Shown: positions 28,813-64,000 of the stretch, piece by piece | How the letters are laid out: each line of letters opens with the position of its first letter | How positions within the stretch are numbered: the stretch's first letter is position 1 | Origin: Eledone cirrhosa | Lineage: Eukaryota | Direction of reading: 5' to 3' | DNA length: 64,000 bases | Assembly (NCBI GenBank): GCA_964016885.1 | Contig: OZ024746.1 | Span: 68,448,001-68,512,000, forward strand | Notes under the pieces: model-generated | What the model was told of the DNA's origin: nothing | Databases searched by the model: none | What the model saw: the letters and a program-made list of their open reading frames with translations, nothing else | Made by a program: the position numbers and the translations under genes

Positions 28813-28911
28813 ATAACTCACAGAAATAAACACTCAGATAAATAATGACAACTATATAAATGCATATATTAATTCATTTGAATTAATATATATATATATA
28901 TATATGTATAT

Positions 28912-31077
28912 AGGAGAATAAATGGGAGAAAGACAGTCTCCCCCATATCGACCGAGGAGAATAAATGGGAGAAAGACAGTCTCCCCCATATCGACCCAAT
29001 AGAGGGACCAGCAGTGTTAGTCGAGGGGAGTATAATAAGTAAGGCAATCAAGGATATGAAGACGGGTAAGGCGGCTGGGCCTTCGGAAATAGTTGCTGAG
29101 AAGCTGAAGGCATCTGGCACGGTGGGACACACCATGGTCACCCGCATAGTTAACCAAGTCGTACAGAATGGGGTTGTTCCGAAGGACTGGCATAGCAGGA
29201 TCATCGTTAACTGTTATAAGGGTAAAGGAGACGCCCTAGATAGGAGTAACTATAGAGGCATTAAATTAATCGACCAGGTCATGAAGGTCACGGAAAAAGT
29301 AATAGCGCAACTAATCAGAGAGAGAATTGACCTAGATGAAATGCAGTTCGGGTTTGTGTCAGGCAAAAGTACCACAGACGCTCTTTTCATAGTACGACAA
29401 CTACAGGAGAAGTACCTAGCTAAAGGTAAACCCCTCTACTTAGCTTTTGTCGACTTGGAGAAAGCCTTCGACAGAGTCCCCCGCTCCATTATCTGGTGGG
29501 CTCTTAGAAAACTAGGCGTTGACGAATGGCTTGTGAGGGCTATACAAGCCATGTATAAAGAAACAGTCAGCAAGGTTAGAATTAACAACGAATATAGCGA
29601 AGAGTTTAGCGTAAAAGTTGGCGTCCATCAGGGCTCTGTTCTCAGCCCACTACTATTTATTATTGCCCTTCAGGCTATAACAGAGGAGTTCAAGACAGGC
29701 TGCCCATGGGAACTCCTATACGCAGACGACCTGACACTCATAGCGGAATCAATGGCCGAGCTAGAGAAGAAATTCCAAACATGGAAGCACGGCCTAGAGT
29801 CAAAAGGACTTAAAATTAACCTGGCTAAGACCAAAGTACTAGTTTGTAGGAAAGAAAACAAGGCGGCGGTCCCTTCTGGGAAATGGTCGTGCTCGGTGTG
29901 TAGGAAAGGCGTAGGTAGAAACTCCATTTTATGTCCTAAATGCAAAGTATGGGTGCATAAAAGATGTAGTGGGATCACAGGTAAGCTAACTAAGAACATA
30001 GATTTTACATGTGGCCGGTGCTCTGGTGCAATAAGTAGCAGCAAGTGCCCACAAAATACTAGCTCTTTCAATTGCGCAGAGGGTTCTATAGAAATAGTGG
30101 ACAGCTTCCGTTACCTGGGCGATAAAATCAGCAGTGGGGGAGGGTGCTCTGAAAGTACTGTAGCTAGAGTCAGAACTGGTTGGAAAAAGTTCAGAGAGCT
30201 TATACCACTATTAGCTGCTAAAGGGTTCTCACTAAAAATGAAAGGCAGGTTGTACGATGCCTGCATACGAACAGCAATGCTGCATGGCAGTGAGACCTGG
30301 GCATTGTGTGCAGAGGATATACGCAGACTAGAGAGGAACGAAGCTTGCATGCTCCGCTGGATGTGTAACAGTAATATACGTGAACGGCAAAGCATAAACG
30401 AACTAAGGAAAAAATTAGAGATAAGAGGGATCAGATGTTGTTTACTCGAGAGAAGGCTACGTTGGTATGGACACGTGATGCGCATGAAAGTCGATAGCTG
30501 TATAACAAAGTGCAGGGCAATAAAGATAGACGGTAGTCACGGAATAGGCAGACCTAGAAAAACCTGGGATGAGCTGATAAACTCCGACATCACACACTTA
30601 CACCTCTCCAAGACAATGTCACTGGACCGAGACCTTTGGCGGTACTCAGTAACAGAGAAGACCCGCCTTACCTAAATATATAGTAAAACCTACTCCAGCC
30701 AGTAGGCATCTCTAACAAAATACACCCCGTCCCACCACCACCACCCCCACCCCATCCACACCACCCCGTTCTATGTAAAGTTATGTTGGTGCCGCGCCAT
30801 CGAGGCCGAAACAAATGAGATCGTGTAGGTGTCACGACAAAAAAACACACAGTCCACGCTGTAATGTGGCCGTGTAGGCAACACGGTAAAAACCTCCCAG
30901 ACCCACACTGTAAATGTGGTTGGTGTTAGGAAGGGCATCCAACTGTAGAAAACCTGCCAGACAGTCCTATGCGAGCAAGACAATCACTCTTGCCTCAAGT
31001 GGGACTACCCCCGTCCAAACCCATGCAAGCGTGGAACACGGACGTTAAACGTTGATGATGATGATGATGATGATGAT
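28912..31077 (+). mobile_element. 5'-truncated RTE-clade LINE (young), 3' UTR with 48-bp units and (GAT)n tail
   Basis: Uninterrupted RT ORF, ~400-bp 3' UTR, (GAT)n tail, 42-bp tandem duplication at the 5' junction. Confidence 0.95.
29014..30675 (+). CDS. Reverse transcriptase of RTE LINE (N-terminally truncated, no APE domain) with internal PHD-type finger
   Basis: YRGIKL, QFGF, FVDLEKAFDRV, GVHQGSVLSPLLF, YADD, FRYLG, RRLRWYGHV, GRPRKTW; open for 553 codons. Confidence 0.9.
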   Translation: MLVEGSIISKAIKDMKTGKAAGPSEIVAEKLKASGTVGHTMVTRIVNQVVQNGVVPKDWHSRIIVNCYKGKGDALDRSNYRGIKLIDQVMKVTEKVIAQLIRERIDLDEMQFGFVSGKSTTDALFIVRQLQEKYLAKGKPLYLAFVDLEKAFDRVPRSIIWWALRKLGVDEWLVRAIQAMYKETVSKVRINNEYSEEFSVKVGVHQGSVLSPLLFIIALQAITEEFKTGCPWELLYADDLTLIAESMAELEKKFQTWKHGLESKGLKINLAKTKVLVCRKENKAAVPSGKWSCSVCRKGVGRNSILCPKCKVWVHKRCSGITGKLTKNIDFTCGRCSGAISSSKCPQNTSSFNCAEGSIEIVDSFRYLGDKISSGGGCSESTVARVRTGWKKFRELIPLLAAKGFSLKMKGRLYDACIRTAMLHGSETWALCAEDIRRLERNEACMLRWMCNSNIRERQSINELRKKLEIRGIRCCLLERRLRWYGHVMRMKVDSCITKCRAIKIDGSHGIGRPRKTWDELINSDITHLHLSKTMSLDRDLWRYSVTEKTRLT

Positions 31078-31196
31078 ATCCAACCCATGCAAGCATGGAA
31101 AAACAGGTGAAGGACGATGATTTTATATATATTGGATCGTCAGGTATGAAATTTGTAGAAAATATAAATTTCTACAAATTTCATACTTGACGACCC

Positions 31197-31265
<69 letters not shown>

Positions 31266-40334: not shown

Positions 40335-40502
40335 ATCGTTTCTGAATTTGTTTAGCAAGGTTCTTTATCTGAAAACGTGTGTTGAAACCGATATTGTTAT
40401 ATTTTGGGAGGGTCATGTTGCCAATAAGAAACACACAATAAGAAAGCAATTGGTGCATGTGTTTCTTATTGGCAACATGACCCTCCCAAAGTATAAGAAT
40501 AT
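40335..40502 (-). mobile_element. Short fold-back copy of family A (no ribozyme retained)
   Basis: Same two termini as 1866-2424 with arms cut to ~45 bp; (AT)n flanks. Confidence 0.85.
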
Positions 40503-40524
40503 ATATGTATATATATAAATATAT

Positions 40525-42215
40525 AAAAGTACCACAGACGCTCTTTTCATTGTACGACAACTACAGGAGAAGTACCTAGCTAAAAGTAAACCCCTATACT
40601 TAGCTTTTGTTGATTTGGAGAAAGCCTTTGACAGAGTCCCCCGCTCCATTATCTGGTGGGCTCTTAGAAAACTAGGTGTTGATGAATGGCTTGTGAAAGC
40701 TATACAAGCCATGTATAAAGAAACAGTCAGCAAGGTTAGAATTAACAACGAATATAGTGAAGAGTTTAGCGTAAAAGTTGGTGTTCATCAGGGCTCCGTT
40801 CTTAGCCTCCTACTATTTATTATTGCCCTTCAGACTATAACAGAGGAGTTCAAGACCGGCTGCCCATGGGAAATCTTATACGCAGATGATCTAACGCTCA
40901 TAGCTGAATCAATGGCTGAACTAGAGAAGAAATTCCAAACATGGAAGCATGGCCTAGAATCAAAAGGCCTTAAAGTTAACTTGTCTAAGACTAAAGTTCT
41001 AGTTTGTAGGAAGGAAAATAGGGCACCGGTCCCATCTGGGAAATGGCCATGCTCAGTGTGTAGGAAAGGAGTAGACAGAAACTCCATTTTAAGTCCCAAA
41101 TACAAAGTATGGGTGCATAAAAGATGTAGTGGGATCACAGGTAAGCTAACTAAGAATATAGATTTTATATGTGGCCGGTGCTCTGGTGCAATAAGTAGCA
41201 GCAAGTGCCCATTGAATACTAGCTCATTCCATTTCACAGATAGTTCTATAGAAATAGTGGACACCTTCCGTTACCTGGGTGACAAAATCAGCAGTGGGGG
41301 AAGGTGCTCTGAAAGTACAGTAGCTAGAGTCAGAACGGGATGGAAAAAGTTCAGAGAGCTTATACCACTATTGGCCGCTAAAGGGTTCTCTCTAAAAATG
41401 AAAGACAGGCTGTATGATGCCTGCATACGAACAGCAATGTTACATGGCAGTGAGACCTGGGCATTGTGTGCAGAGGATATACGCAGACTGGAGAGGAATG
41501 AAGCTTGCATGCTCCGCTGGATGTGTAATAGTAATATACGTGAACGGCAAAGCATAAATGAACTAAGGGAGAAATTAGGAATAAGAGGGATCAGATGTTG
41601 TTTACTCAAGAGAAGACCATGTTGGTACGGTCACGTGATGTGCATGAAAGACGACAGCTGTATAAAAACGTGCAGGTCGATAAAAATAGACGGTAGCCTC
41701 GGAGTAGGCAGACCCAGAAAAACCTGGGACGACTTGATAAATTCCGACCTCACACACTTACACCTCTCCAAGACAATGTCACTGGACCGAGATCTTTGGG
41801 GCTACACAGTAATACAAAAGACCCGCCTTGCCTAAGTACAAAGCGAAACCTACAGCCAGTAGGCACCTCTAACAAAAATACACCCCTGTCCCACTACCCC
41901 CACCCCATCCACACCACCCCCTTCAATGTGAAGTTATGTTGGTACCACAACATCCAGTCGGAAATAAATGAGGTCGTGTAGGTGTCACGACAAAAAAACA
42001 CACAGTCCACGCTGTAATGTGGCCGTGTAGGTAACACAGTAAAAACTTCCCAGTCCACACTGTAAACGTGGTTGGTGTTAGGAAGGGCATCCAGCCGTAG
42101 AAAACCCGCCAGACAGTCCTATACGAGCAAGACAACCAATCTTGCCTCAAGTGGGAAAACTACCGTCCAAACCCATACAAGCGTGGAAGATGGACATTAA
42201 ACGATGATGATGATG

Positions 42216-42743: not shown

Positions 42744-42901
42744 CCTTGCAAGCAGGGAAAAGCGGACGTAAAATGATGATGATGATGATGATGATGATAT
42801 ATGTTTTAGGTAGTTCCAAAGAAAAAGCAAAGAGAAAAAGAGTGCTCTATGTATAGAACTGAGCTGTTTAATTAGAAAGTGAACAACACAATATATAACT
42901 A

Positions 42902-42970
42902 CTCCATTACCAAAGGTTTCAGGGCCCTAGACAATATTAATATACGTACTAGATCGTTCATCAGACAGAG
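42902..42970 (-). ncRNA. Type-I hammerhead ribozyme (family H) within fold-back 42882-43016
   Basis: CTCTGT-CTGATGA-ACGAT-CTAG...CTAG-GGCCCT-GAAA-CCTTTGG-TA-ATGGAG; inverted arms 42882-42923 / 42976-43016. Confidence 0.65.
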
Positions 42971-43063
42971 ATGTCCTAAAACCTTTGGTAATGGAGTATT
43001 TATATATTGTGTTGTTTACCTAATATATATATATATATTGACCATGATGACTGGAAAAATAAT

Positions 43064-50916: not shown

Positions 50917-52366
50917 ATTATTCTGATAGGTGATGATGATGATGATGGTAATGATAATGATGACAAGGATGATAATGACATTGGTATTGACACTAATGAT
51001 GAAGATCATAATGATGATGATGATGATAAGAATCCAATGACAACAATGTTAACAATTATGATGACAATGATGATGATAATTATCACAATCAAAATGACAA
51101 CAACAATGACTACTGCAGCTGATGATGATGATGATGATGGCAGTGATGAGGGGGAATCCTCCTCCTCATCTACATTATTGACTTGTGTGTGTGTTCAATA
51201 CTAAATAATCAGCATTAGAAGAGAAACTGAAAGAAGGATGAAAGAGAAAAGATAAAAACAAAAAAAAAACAACAACAGAGAAAGAAACAGAAGAAAGGTG
51301 AAAGGTGAAAGAAGTGGGGGGGGGGTAAAAATGGTGAATTAGTTAAAAGAGCAAAGCATAAATAAGAAGGAATGATAGTGGTGGTGGTGGCGGTGATAGT
51401 TTTAGTGGAGGGGTGAAAGAGGTAGGGGTGTAATGGAAGGCATAATAGTATAACTAGGAAGGAAACAGATTAAAAGGGGAAATGGTAAGGTGAGATGAGG
51501 TAAGAAGAGAAGAGATTTAAAGAATGATGAAAGGATTCTGAAAAAAAACAAAAGGGGGTAAGAGGAATAAGTATTTAGTAGTGAATGAGAGAAGAAGAGA
51601 TTTTGGAAAATACGCAGTGAGGAAGAGGAAGCATTTAGGTAAGAGTGAGAGAAAGATGGATTTGTAAAATGAGGGAGAAGGGGAGGTATTTGGTTGAGAA
51701 AGAGTTGAGAAAGAATTAGAGGATTTGGGATTTTGTAAAAACGAGAAGGAGGTATTTAGGAAAGGGGAATGAAAGAAAAGGGATTCAGAAAGGGGTATAG
51801 TTAGTAGATATTTGAGAAAGAGTGAGAGATGAAGGTATTTTGGAAGTAAAGGAAAGGGGGTTTGGTGGGGTTAAACATAGAATAAGTGAGAAAATATATT
51901 AATCCATGCAAATCTGGGGAAACAGGGCATGATGATTATGATGATGTTTGACAGGAGAAAGTTTACTGAGAAAGAATGGATAGGAGCAGGCCTATGTATA
52001 ACTAGTAATAGACCCATTCTAGGTGTAAAATGTAGGCCACCAAAACCTAGTAAAAGGCACAGACCAGATGTGAAATGTAGACTCAAGCCACCCAAATCCT
52101 GTAAAATGCTCAGGCCAGATGTGAAATATAGGCCACCTCTGTCTGGTAAAGGGTCCAGGCCAGGTGTAAAATGTAAGCCCCATTTTAAACTGTTCATTAA
52201 GTATTCTAGTAATCAGTGCCAAATACATATAACTCATGTACAGATTATAGGTATATATGTATGTATATATATATATATATATCCAGGTATATATGTGTGT
52301 ATATATATATCCAGCAAATCTTCAACCATCAAGGTTGTTTTTCTAAGGGTATGTCAACAAATTTTG

Positions 52367-52430
52367 TATTTTATCTGATGAAAGTGCACCAAAATTGCCT
52401 TGGTTGCCTTGAAATATATATAATAAAATA
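52367..52430 (+). ncRNA. Type-I hammerhead ribozyme (family F) in (AT)n-embedded insert ~52311-52566
   Basis: TATTTTAT-CTGATGA-AAGTGCACCA...TGGTTGCCTT-GAAA-TATATA-TA-ATAAAATA; 8-bp stem I. Confidence 0.8.
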
Positions 52431-52714
52431 AAATAATTATGGTTTTATAAATATAGTTTCCATTTATTAATATATTGAATATTTACTCCAGTAACTGTTG
52501 AGTGCTTTATATCAGTTATAAAACTTTTAAGCTTGTTGAATCCTAACAAATTTAATATAACTTCTGCATATATGTATATATATATAATTGGTGTTGGGTG
52601 TTTAAAGCGTCCGTATGCGGTAGGCCGTATGAGCACTCGATGTTCTCATAGAGCAGAGTATTATATCACAGAAAAAAAGGAAAATCTATAGGAAAATCTG
52701 CTTCGTAGAATCAA

Positions 52715-52975: not shown

Positions 52976-53016
52976 CGAAACATAAGTCAATTGCATGAAC
53001 TCATAATCCTTTATTT

Positions 53017-53072
53017 GCTGCTATATATATTTCAATGATAGCCATTGAATGGCTATGACCTCATCAGGCAGT
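53017..53072 (-). ncRNA. Type-I hammerhead ribozyme (family B relative)
   Basis: ACTGC-CTGATGA-GGTC-ATAGCCAT(TCA)ATGGCTAT-CATT-GAAA-TATATA-TA-GCAGC. Confidence 0.8.
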
Positions 53073-60356: not shown

Positions 60357-60503
60357 GGTATATATTTTATCTAATAATTCTAAGGACATGATTTATGATA
60401 TATATATATATATATATATATACAATATATTAACAAATGGAAACTATATTTATAAAACCATATATATTTCATTATACATATTTTATAAAACTAACCTATA
60501 TTA

Positions 60504-60569
60504 TATTTTATCTGATGAAAGCGCACCATAGTTTGCTCTGGTGGTGCTTGAAATATGTATAATGAAATA
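60504..60569 (+). ncRNA. Type-I hammerhead ribozyme (family F) in fold-back insert ~60421-60700
   Basis: TATTTTAT-CTGATGA-AAGCGCACCA...TGGTGGTGCTT-GAAA-TATGTA-TA-ATGAAATA; 60421-60483 is an inverted copy of 60551-60613. Confidence 0.8.
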
Positions 60570-60999
60570 AATATGGTTTTATAAATATAGTTTCCATTTG
60601 TTAATATATTGTATATTTACTCCAATAATTTGTTGAGTGCTTTATATCAGTTATAAAAATATTTTGCTTGTTGTATCCCAACAAATTAAATATAACCTCT
60701 ACATATATATATATATATATATATAAAAGGAAAAAATGAAACAAAATTTCATTTCCCACTCTTGGTACGGCTGTTACTTAAATATAAGTATGTACATGTA
60801 CATACATATATGTATACAGACGTACAGTAGTATGTATATATATATATATATATATACATACATGCACACATATATATATGTACGTATGGATTCACCGAAC
60901 ATTTATTATAATGCTCGGTGTGTTTGTAAACAAACATCCCGTATTAAGCCGTAGTGTCTAGCAACCATCGTTGCTTGTTTGTTCAACACTGACAAAGGA

Positions 61000-61042
61000 A
61001 CGCTGTACTAGTTTCAAGCTTATTAGCTATCGTCAGCAACGT
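61000..61042 (-). ncRNA. Minimal type-I hammerhead ribozyme (family G, left arm)
   Basis: Reverse complement of 61455-61497. Confidence 0.85.
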
Positions 61043-61454
61043 ATACCTTCCTGCCAGATGATTGAACGTCTGAAAGTATATACTTTCTTTATGCATATTA
61101 ACGGCTGAGCAGCCTAATTTGCATATCGAGTGGGTTAATCGGCCGGGTGCACCGACAACGATAAACGGAAAAAATGAAACAAAATTTCATTTCCCACTCT
61201 TAGTACAGCTGTTACTTAAATATAAGTATGTACAGTACATCTGTATACATATATGTATGTACGTGTACATACATATATTTAAGTAACAGCCGTACTAAGA
61301 GTGGGAAATGAAATTTCATTTCATTTTTTCCGTTTATCGTTCTCGGTGCACCCGGCCGATTAACCCACTCGATATGCAAATTAGGCTGCTCAGCCGTTAA
61401 TATGCATAAGAAAAGTATATACTTTCAGACGTCAATCATCTGGCAGGAAGGTAT

Positions 61455-61497
61455 ACGTTGCTGACGATAGCTAATAAGCTTGAAACTAGTACAGCGT
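61455..61497 (+). ncRNA. Minimal type-I hammerhead ribozyme (family G, right arm)
   Basis: ACGTTG-CTGACGA-T-AGCT(AATA)AGCT-T-GAAA-CTAG-TA-CAGCGT; palindromic stem III ACTAGT, GUA cleavage triplet. Confidence 0.85.
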
Positions 61498-61727
61498 TCC
61501 TTTGTCAGTGTTGAACAAACGAGCAACGATGGTTGCTAGACACTACGGCTTTATACGGGATGTTTGTTTACAAACACACCGAGCATTATAATAAATGTTT
61601 GATGAATCCATACGTACATATATATATGTGTGCATGTATGTATATATATATATACTACTGTACGTCTGTATACATATACGTATGTACGTGTACATATATA
61701 TATATATATATATAGAATAAGGAAATT

Positions 61728-62004
61728 GATATAGGTGGTGGTGGTGGTGGTGGTGTTGGTTGGTGACAGTGATATAGGTGGTGGTGGTGATGGTGATGTT
61801 GGTTGGTGACAGTGATATAGGTGGTGATGGTGATGTTGGTTGGTGACAGTGATATAGGTGGTGGTGGTGATGATGGTTGGTGACAGTGATATAGGTGGTG
61901 GTGGTGGTGATGGTGATGTTGGTTGGTGACAGTGATATAGGTGGTGGTGGTGGTGATGGTGATGTTGGTTGGTGACAGTGATATAGGTGGTGGTGGTGGT
62001 GGTG
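61728..62004. repeat. ~40-bp G-rich minisatellite with variable (GGT)n
   Basis: Unit GGTTGGTGACAGTGATATAGGT(GGT)nGATGGTGATGTT, about 6-7 copies. Confidence 0.9.
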
Positions 62005-62182
62005 TACCTTGGACTGCATTATCTAATGTGGTCATTTTTTAAAATATTATTTTAGATCGTAGGCTGTGCTATGAGAGAGAATTGACTGCTATTTCTAGTG
62101 TTAGTGTAAAAAATTAGAAAGACCCGAATTCCCATGGGCTGAAGCTGAAGCATATAGACAATATGCCCCCATGCCCCTCCCG

Positions 62183-62637
62183 CTGTAAAGTGGTCGTGTA
62201 GGTGTCACGACAAAAAGCACCCAGTCCACACTGTAAGTGGTCGTGTAGGTGTCATGACAAAAAGCCCCCAGTCCACACTGTAAAGTGGTCGTGTAGGTGT
62301 CATGACAAAAAGCACCCAGTCCACACTGTAAAGTGGTCGTGTAGGTGTCATGACAAAAAGCACCCAGTCCACACTGTAAAGTGGTCGTGTAGGTGTCATG
62401 ACAAAAAGCACCCAGTCCACACTGTAAAGTGGTTGTGTAGGCGCCACGGTAAAAGAGCACCTAGTACTCACTGTAAATGAGGTTGGTGTTAGGAAGGGCA
62501 TCTAGCTGTAGAAACTGAGCCAAATCAGTCCTGTATGAGCAAGACAAGGTCACCTGACCTGGCATTGCCCATAACAGGACACCCCGTCTAACCCATGCTA
62601 GCATGGAGACATCAATATAAAACAGTGATGATGATGA
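62183..62637 (+). mobile_element. RTE 3'-UTR-derived element with six 48-bp tandem units
   Basis: Unit CTGTAAAGTGGTCGTGTAGGTGTCATGACAAAAAGCACCCAGTCCACA x6 (62183-62470), then the shared tail and (GAT)n. Confidence 0.9.
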
Positions 62638-63052
62638 AAGAAAAAAGGGAAGAATGAAGGAAAAGGGAGTGAGAGAGAGAGAGAGAGAGAATGAAGGAAA
62701 AGAAAATGGATATTGAGGAAGAAAACAGATGTAGAGAAGATATAGTAGATTTGTGACAGAAAATATAAAGCTTTGACAAAAAAAAACATGGAGATATGAA
62801 AAGAGGAGAGAGAGAGTGAATGGAAGAAAGACAGAGAGAGAGTGAAATAGAGAGAGAGTGTGTGTGTGAATGAGAGAGAGAGAGAGAGAGTGTGTGTGTG
62901 AATGAAAAAGAGAGAGAGTGTGTGTGTGTGTTTTGATGGCTGCCGGAAAGTTGTTAGAGTGACTATTTGGTTCAAACACGCACTTCTAGGCTTTGGATCC
63001 TTAGTTATACTTGTGCGGACACACAGAGACATGACATTAAGCTCTGGTTGAC

Positions 63053-64000
63053 TGGTTGTGTGGTGGGTTGGTATAGTTGTGTGGTTGTGTGGTTGGTTGG
63101 TATAGTTGTGTGGTGGTGTGGTGGGTTAGTATAGTTGTATGGTTGTGTAGTGGGTTGGTATAGTTGTGTGGTTGTGTGGTGGGTTGGTATAGTTGTGTGG
63201 TTGTGTGGTTGGTTGGTATAGTTGTGTAGTGTTGCTATAGTTGTGTGGTGGTGTGGTGGGTTAGTATAGTTGTATGGTTGTGTAGTGGGTTGGTGTGGTT
63301 GTGTGGTGGATTGGTATAGTTGTGTGGTGTGGTTGTGTGGTTGTGTGGTGGTATAGTTGTGTGATGGTGTGGTGTGTGGTGGTATAGTTGTGTGGTTGTG
63401 TGGTGGGTTGGTATAGTTGTGTGGTGTGTTGGTATAGTTGTGTGGTGTGTTGGTATAGTTGTGTGGTTGTGTGGTGGGTTTGTATAGTTGTGTGGCGTGT
63501 TTATGTGGTTGTGTGGTGGTATAGTTGTGTGATGGTGTGGTGTGTGGTTGTGTGGTGGGTTGGTATAGTTGTGTGGTGTGTGGTGGTATGGTTGTGTGGT
63601 CGGTTGGTATAGTTGTGTGGTGTGTTTGTGTGGTTGTGTGGTGGTATAGTTGTGTGATGGTGTGGTGTGTGGTGGTATAGTTGTGTGGTTGTGTGGTGGG
63701 TTGGTATAGTTGTGTGGTGTGTGGTGGTATGGTTGTGTGGTGGTATAGTTGATTGGTTGTGTGGTGGTATAGTTGATTGGTTGTGTGGTGGTATAGTTGA
63801 GTGGTTGTGTGGTTGTGTGGTGGTACAGTTGAGTGGTTGTGTGGTGGTACAGTTGAGCGGTTGTGTGGTGGTATAGTTGAGTGGTTGTGTGATGCTCTAG
63901 TTCAGTGGTTGTGTGGTGGTATAGTTCAGTGGTTGTGTGGTGGTATAGTTCAGTGGCTGTGTGGTGGTATAGTTCAGTGGTTGTGTGGTGGTATAGTTCA
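63053..64000. repeat. GT-rich low-complexity minisatellite running off the window
   Basis: Variants of GGTTGTGTGGTGGTATAGTT. Confidence 0.9.

Follow-up and report, generated by a model that had tools for sequence, protein, structure and literature searches.

Animal non-LTR retrozymes have been proposed to be mobilized by Penelope-like elements (PLEs), a hypothesis drawn from common hammerheads, co-occurrence and pLTR similarity (PMC7229834; 10.64898/2026.07.22.740005). We asked what a ~970-bp, hammerhead-bearing fold-back in Eledone cirrhosa contributes to this question: what kind of unit it holds, which machinery inserted it and whether its RNA template was a circle or an uncut tandem. The analysis covered the surrounding 64,000 nucleotides (contig OZ024746.1, positions 68,448,001 to 68,512,000; hereafter the window, in which all coordinates are counted), an AT-rich stretch with many microsatellites and LINE-type RT remnants. 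Here a retrozyme-type unit bears the full PLE end pattern, and neighbouring fold-backs serve as internal controls. The locus does not reveal a novel class of element, and one decayed copy is too little to decide what form the template took.

Geometry of the fold-back

In a self-comparison of the window, 60779-61706 and its reverse complement aligned at 92.8% across 942 columns (E 0.0), bearing out the original prediction of a ~970-bp fold-back in which each arm exceeds one unit. The two arms stand head to head, with their 5' ends central and both 3' ends pointing outward into (TA)n, and the same comparison found no further non-microsatellite copy of the fold-back in the 64-kb window. Its parts are as follows.

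60703-60725, no strand: left (TA)n target tract, from the sequence; it also terminates a neighbouring PLE-type remnant (60415-60702)
60729-61234, minus strand: left arm, 506 bp, made of a 438-bp unit and a 68-bp upstream piece, 5'-truncated, as a pLTR-like partial tandem; 3' end outward
60729-60788, minus strand: one-sided extension ('tail') of ~60 bp on the left outer end only, containing a predicted hairpin with its foot at the long end
60994-61051, minus strand: type I hammerhead motif of the left arm, core CUGACGA at 61036, predicted cut 61006/61005
61167-61234, minus strand: inner copy of the left-arm redundancy, from self-comparison
61230-61238, no strand: fold-back axis GTA-CAG-TAC, a small central palindrome
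61235-61697, plus strand: right arm, 463 bp, made of a 425-bp unit and 38 bp, 3' end outward, without a tail
61446-61503, plus strand: type I hammerhead motif of the right arm, core CUGACGA at 61461, predicted cut 61491/61492
61612-61697, plus strand: internal TA-rich, self-complementary tract of the unit, in which the short outer end falls, as do the two inner ends
61694-61714, no strand: right (TA)n target tract, from the sequence

Both terminal redundancies were recovered close to their predicted lengths. On the left, where 67 bp at period 438 had been expected, 60729-60796 repeats 61167-61234 (66 of 68 bases identical, period 438) and the match breaks off abruptly inward (0/12 of the next bases); beyond the tail, 5 of the 6 bases at 60723-60728 also match. 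On the right, with ~35 bp expected, 61235-61272 repeats 61660-61697 (35/38 identical, period 425), and the gap between the two periods equals a 12-13-nt length difference in the internal TA tract. The right arm could be just a mirror image of the left and, whether or not it is, its redundancy counts for little as independent evidence. Past the long end both arms continue into the next unit and not into an ORF, matching at 28 of 31 bases across the head-to-tail junction; since the long end runs into the next unit and the copy crosses a perfect hammerhead site, the template would have held the unit head to tail.

The inner ends of the arms lie ~30 nt or less apart and the outer ends ~60 nt apart, the latter at +206 and +264 to +271 nt from the predicted hammerhead cut, which coincides with neither. 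The arms had been predicted to start at different points of one cyclic sequence: the offset is real but small, consisting of one ~60-bp extension on one outer end, and judged from these ends the apparent permutation matches a PLE-type tail. Both outer ends adjoin (TA)n, and no target-site duplication is readable apart from this flanking microsatellite. Across 433 aligned columns the arms show 13 substitutions besides indels (~3% divergence), and with that many differences, 5 of them of CpG type, the fold-back is by its pattern of decay aged genomic DNA rather than an assembly mirror.

Hammerhead motif, coding content and predicted folding

The two hammerhead motifs lie on opposite strands and point away from each other, leaving one hammerhead per strand. 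Each has a 6-bp helix I with an internal loop and an outer stem, a 4-bp helix II and a 2-bp palindromic helix III. Set beside the canonical hammerhead described in PMC4209133 (6-bp helix I with a loop, short helix II, 1-2-bp palindromic helix III), the proportions of the predicted fold are canonical except at the base of helix II, where an atypical U.U replaces G-C at positions 10.1-11.1. The full length of Rfam HH9 aligns, with a score of 19.7 bits (E 0.0063) where 52 would be needed to reach gathering score. An Rfam scan of the 64-kb window gave no match at gathering score; at E up to 10, 60600-61800 gave 105 matches, all sub-gathering and none a hammerhead, and we set aside the top ones as miRNA-hairpin look-alikes of the fold-back. 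The claim of one intact hammerhead per unit holds for the motif, which is present in each arm, while cleavage is a prediction from sequence. Between the arms the hammerhead region is identical at 86 of 86 positions (60977-61062); we rejected this as a sign of selection, since such identity has an expectation of ~7% at 3% divergence. Hammerhead pairs on opposite strands, 100-700 bp apart, were already observed in 2014 (PMC4209133).

The unit (425/438 bp, 37% GC) carries no ORF, as had been anticipated, and the longest stop-to-stop frame in the doubled unit is 73 aa. A helix III this short would, according to PMC4209133, need a dimer to cleave, and this requirement together with the U.U pair suggests slow cutting, which would speak for an uncut tandem as the template.

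In a predicted circle, helix I (pair probabilities 0.44-0.93) and helix II (0.90-0.99) can form, and the whole folds better than 60 of 60 shuffles; the unit without its TA tract still does so (z -3.69 and -5.73). Because the antisense (z -3.05) and two of six control windows (-4.4 and -5.3) also score, this modelled signal, which comes partly from the TA tract, lends weak support to a retrozyme. Read-through RNA of the locus is predicted to be 95% paired, with the ribozyme buried; given this fold and the single hammerhead per strand, the model indicates that the locus itself could not release a monomer. With one hammerhead per strand, a monomer circle would need a tandem donor.

An octamer motif occurs at 61374-61381 and 61117-61124, ~110 nt upstream of the cut and within a predicted hairpin. 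That such an octamer may act as an snRNA-type promoter is a lead that reportedly comes from newt satellite 2; we rejected this role for ATGCAAAT at 61374, as the octamer occurs 11 times in the window and twice in the element, not above chance.

Penelope-like ends in the fold-back and its neighbours

PLE insertions are described as having a partial tandem, an adjacent inverted 5'-truncated copy, a 30-40-bp tail at one end and a bias for (TA)n (PMC8557442), and their palindromic head-to-head junctions have been interpreted as self-priming (PMC3846280). In vitro, a PLE RT used unprocessed RNA, began at two adjacent internal start sites that define the tail, and extended both strands; the same report, on a single lizard element, describes hammerhead mutants as without effect on insertion (PMC11167929). 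As in these accounts (PMC3846280, PMC8557442, PMC11167929), the fold-back combines a partial tandem with an adjacent inverted, 5'-truncated copy joined at a palindromic head-to-head junction, and it likewise shows a one-sided tail, a (TA)n target and ends shortly downstream of the hammerhead. Its tail, at ~60 nt, is longer than the 30-40 bp published and similar to the offset in a neighbouring family (family B, below).

Unlike endonuclease-bearing PLEs, the fold-back has no RT/GIY-YIG ORF, repeats at ~430 bp and carries a ~60-bp tail, and its hammerhead differs from the minimal type with a long helix II; the RT plus GIY-YIG ORF between pLTRs that marks an autonomous PLE is missing from it. Another parallel is MRC1 of Chlamydomonas, described in PMC8557442 as non-coding, with pLTRs and head-to-tail insertions made through PLE machinery. 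The non-autonomous PLEs of that paper generally share 3' sequence with an autonomous family, whereas the unit has no such partner in the window and does have a hammerhead.

Within the 64-kb window we detected no similarity of the unit to PLE pieces or to neighbouring families. A GIY-YIG-like ORF remnant stands at 66-524 (feature score 0.94-0.97), which suggests from sequence features that PLE-type enzymes exist in the genome. It belongs to a broken minus-strand ORF (66-1229) that ends in the GIY-YIG-like domain and whose upstream piece presumably resembles a Neptune/Nematis-type PLE linker; no Pfam family was found for the pieces 66-524 and 531-1229.

We surveyed all short fold-backs in the 64-kb window (n = 12, the element under study included). 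Among the 11 others, seven (5 clear, 2 weak) stop within 2 nt of a TA run on one side and 30-138 nt away on the opposite side, another two reach TA runs on both sides, and the last two match neither pattern; for background, 8.4% of random points lie equally near a TA-run end. The one-sided cases are the following.

1927-2420, clear one-sided fold-back
7847-8077, clear one-sided fold-back
8419-8568, clear one-sided fold-back
40397-40496, clear one-sided fold-back
60423-60611, clear one-sided fold-back
31133-31197, weak one-sided fold-back
42879-43019, weak one-sided fold-back

The two copies of family B (1868-2424 and 40337-40500), both head to head in (TA)n, share the same long end (55/56) and the same short end, offset by 55-60 nt, while arm length and centre differ between them; families C and E have long ends common to two copies each. 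Self-comparison found no greater-than-unit repeat in families B, C and E. Because these neighbours share one-sided ends without such a repeat, the offset ends of the element do not, on this comparison, need a circle. The original prediction had taken the fold-back as the footprint of reverse transcription around a circular or along a tandem RNA: a template of more than one unit, read through the ribozyme site, survives from that claim, and random entry into a circle as the source of the offset ends is not supported, the one-sided extension recurring in 7/11 neighbours and being fixed between family B copies.

The motifs of families B, C and D have a long helix II, resembling the PLE min-HHRs described in PMC4209133. 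The family B copy at 1868-2424 has hammerhead-like cores at 2236 (plus strand) and 2095 (minus strand). Family C is the PLE-type remnant at 60415-60702 and 52361-52586, with a long-helix II hammerhead motif (cores 60512 and 52375); the fold-back under study sits in the (TA)n at the long end of the former, one insertion within the target tract of another. Hammerhead-bearing repeats at 3083-3237 and 4246-4400, inverted and ~1 kb apart, make up family D, which has a relative at 53007-53072 and whose right-hand repeat ends at a SINE-like repeat. Further short fold-backs with a one-sided extension lie at 8343-8572 and 52587-52686 (family E, starting at the identical base after (TA)n and 81/100 identical), at 7845-8125 and at 42879-43019, the last with a hammerhead-like core at 42964 on the minus strand. 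Spacers in nine other measured fold-backs range from 0 to 75 nt.

Template, donor and class of the element

We give a probability of roughly 0.5 to the reading that a PLE enzyme inserted an ORF-less, ~430-bp, hammerhead-bearing unit of retrozyme type head to head in (TA)n, the likely template being an uncut head-to-tail transcript. The broader claim that PLE machinery inserted a retrozyme-type unit, whether its template was uncut or circular, we hold with considerable confidence. From the observed geometry, repeats, motif, flanks and like end pattern in neighbours we infer an enzymology, a donor and a template form as follows. A tandem donor elsewhere would have been transcribed; a PLE GIY-YIG/RT protein would then have nicked (TA)n, with cDNA beginning inside the RNA, ~264-271 nt past the hammerhead cut. 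Reverse transcription would have covered ~1.2 units, through the uncut hammerhead and into the preceding unit, leaving the 68-bp partial tandem. The mirror arm would have come from snap-back at the palindromic TA-rich tract or from RT starting a second time, on the opposite strand; it would have ended ~206 nt past the cut, giving the one-sided tail. The copy would have decayed afterwards, to arms that are now 3% different.

The central 8-mer (61230-61237) equals 60822-60829 of the unit, and the asymmetry now seen would follow if, after snap-back, 30 nt were lost between two identical 5-mers. Going by this centre, both arms may stem from one event, a single ~535-nt cDNA (1.2 units) that snapped back, and probably not from two independent ones; two bluntly joined cDNAs also fit, the near-equal arm lengths then being a coincidence.

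The same unit and enzyme may instead have worked on a cut and ligated ~430-nt circle, with the RT starting internally and passing the ligation junction, a possibility to which we attach distinctly less weight. The copying passed a perfect cut site and covered more than one unit; helices I and II of the hammerhead are able to pair in the predicted circle, whose fold beats all 60 shuffles; animal retrozymes accumulate as circles, which are the dominant retrozyme RNA in mussel (PMC7229834), and circles have been proposed as RT templates (PMC7229834, PMC4209133). An uncut tandem, however, would leave identical DNA, so that one locus cannot separate the two; the offset ends are explicable without a circle, the fold signal is due in part to the TA tract and also appears in the antisense and in two control windows, and the PLE studied in vitro took unprocessed RNA (PMC11167929). 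By analogy with the circle dominance in mussel (PMC7229834), a circular template would be no less favoured than a linear one. More doubtful still is an extended form of this idea, in which a retrozyme family conserved in several related species supplies its ~430-nt circle as the PLE RT template, with fixed starts at +206 and ~+265. If that were true, a retrozyme-PLE partnership would have left its direct mechanistic footprint at this locus, which would also offer a natural minimal substrate for comparing circle with uncut RNA. The locus does yield exact predictions, namely fixed ends at +206 and ~+265 from the cut.

Two further explanations were weighed. It is unlikely that the fold-back is a one-off gutted PLE, a rare by-product whose ORF was lost by internal deletion that brought two pLTRs to a 430-bp period. 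Every end feature is that of an ordinary PLE insertion, pLTRs alone are reported to drive insertion in trans (PMC3846280) and the short junction would have had a single origin should the right arm be a mirror copy; yet neither side of the junction retains an ORF remnant, nothing matches the PLE pieces of the window, and the short helix II with a defined loop 1 contrasts with families B, C and D, whose motifs have a long helix II. Far less credible is that DNA was duplicated and inverted locally in a region rich in microsatellites, or that the assembly folded back on itself, the hammerhead then being a chance resemblance. The copy is single in the window, and the tract that contains the two inner ends is palindromic and of low complexity; against this, the arms carry 13 substitutions as well as indels, with decay of CpG type, HH9 is matched by the hammerhead in its full geometry, and both ends adjoin (TA)n as in the neighbours. 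The 21-35% of sampled 31-mers present in nine other-organism runs speaks against it as well, though these could mark one orthologous locus.

Turning back to a retrozyme-type unit inserted by PLE machinery, the head-to-tail template, the canonical hammerhead, the size and the GC content together make the element probably a new non-LTR retrozyme, for which a multi-copy family and circular RNA would be expected. Like the animal non-LTR retrozymes described in PMC7229834 and 10.64898/2026.07.22.740005, the unit is ORF-less, has a head-to-tail junction and stays under 45% GC; it also shares with them a canonically sized type I hammerhead whose palindromic helix III is short, and a structured predicted monomer. 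Its length slightly exceeds the 170-400 nt of invertebrate retrozymes and lies within the 51-972 bp given in 10.64898/2026.07.22.740005. Unlike the 'active' retrozymes defined there by a two-hammerhead rule, the locus carries a single hammerhead on each strand, with 1.1-1.2 units in each arm; it also departs from the non-LTR retrozymes so described in its head-to-head arrangement, its U.U at 10.1-11.1 and its lack of pLTR homology within the window. The plant LTR retrozyme as set out in that source combines a type III hammerhead with direct LTRs, a PBS, a PPT and a 4-bp TSD, whereas the hammerhead here is of type I and the repeats are inverted. The earlier retrozyme inference thus stands as to a non-autonomous, ORF-less hammerhead unit of retrozyme size, and fails as to a circle made by this locus, which has one hammerhead per strand. 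Among the literature records listed, we found no description of a retrozyme in an inverted head-to-head arrangement, though supplements to these papers may include inverted copies of retrozymes or families from cephalopods.

Neither the 64-kb window nor motif searches of metagenome contigs revealed a second copy, a tandem array or an autonomous partner. The exact hammerhead pattern gave 0 matches in those contigs, and we dismissed as chance the 16 metagenome matches and 1 viral match to a relaxed pattern, of which 0/17 form both helices or match beyond the motif. Among the matches listed, nine runs (8 studies, 9 other organism labels) contain 21-35% of 34 sampled 31-mers, a count that leaves out the study with the largest share and 7 of the 20 listed rows, with shares under 0.2; no RNA run was among the matches listed. 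Such sharing across organisms may reflect a family or one orthologous locus.

Elsewhere in the window, LINE-type RT ORF copies lie at 28882-30675, 40519-41835 and 4876-5695, the longest with an RVT_1 and a PHD-finger match. A 48-bp tandem array related to a dispersed SINE-like repeat, together with G+T-rich minisatellites, occupies 62187-62474, 61734-62017 and 63000-64000.
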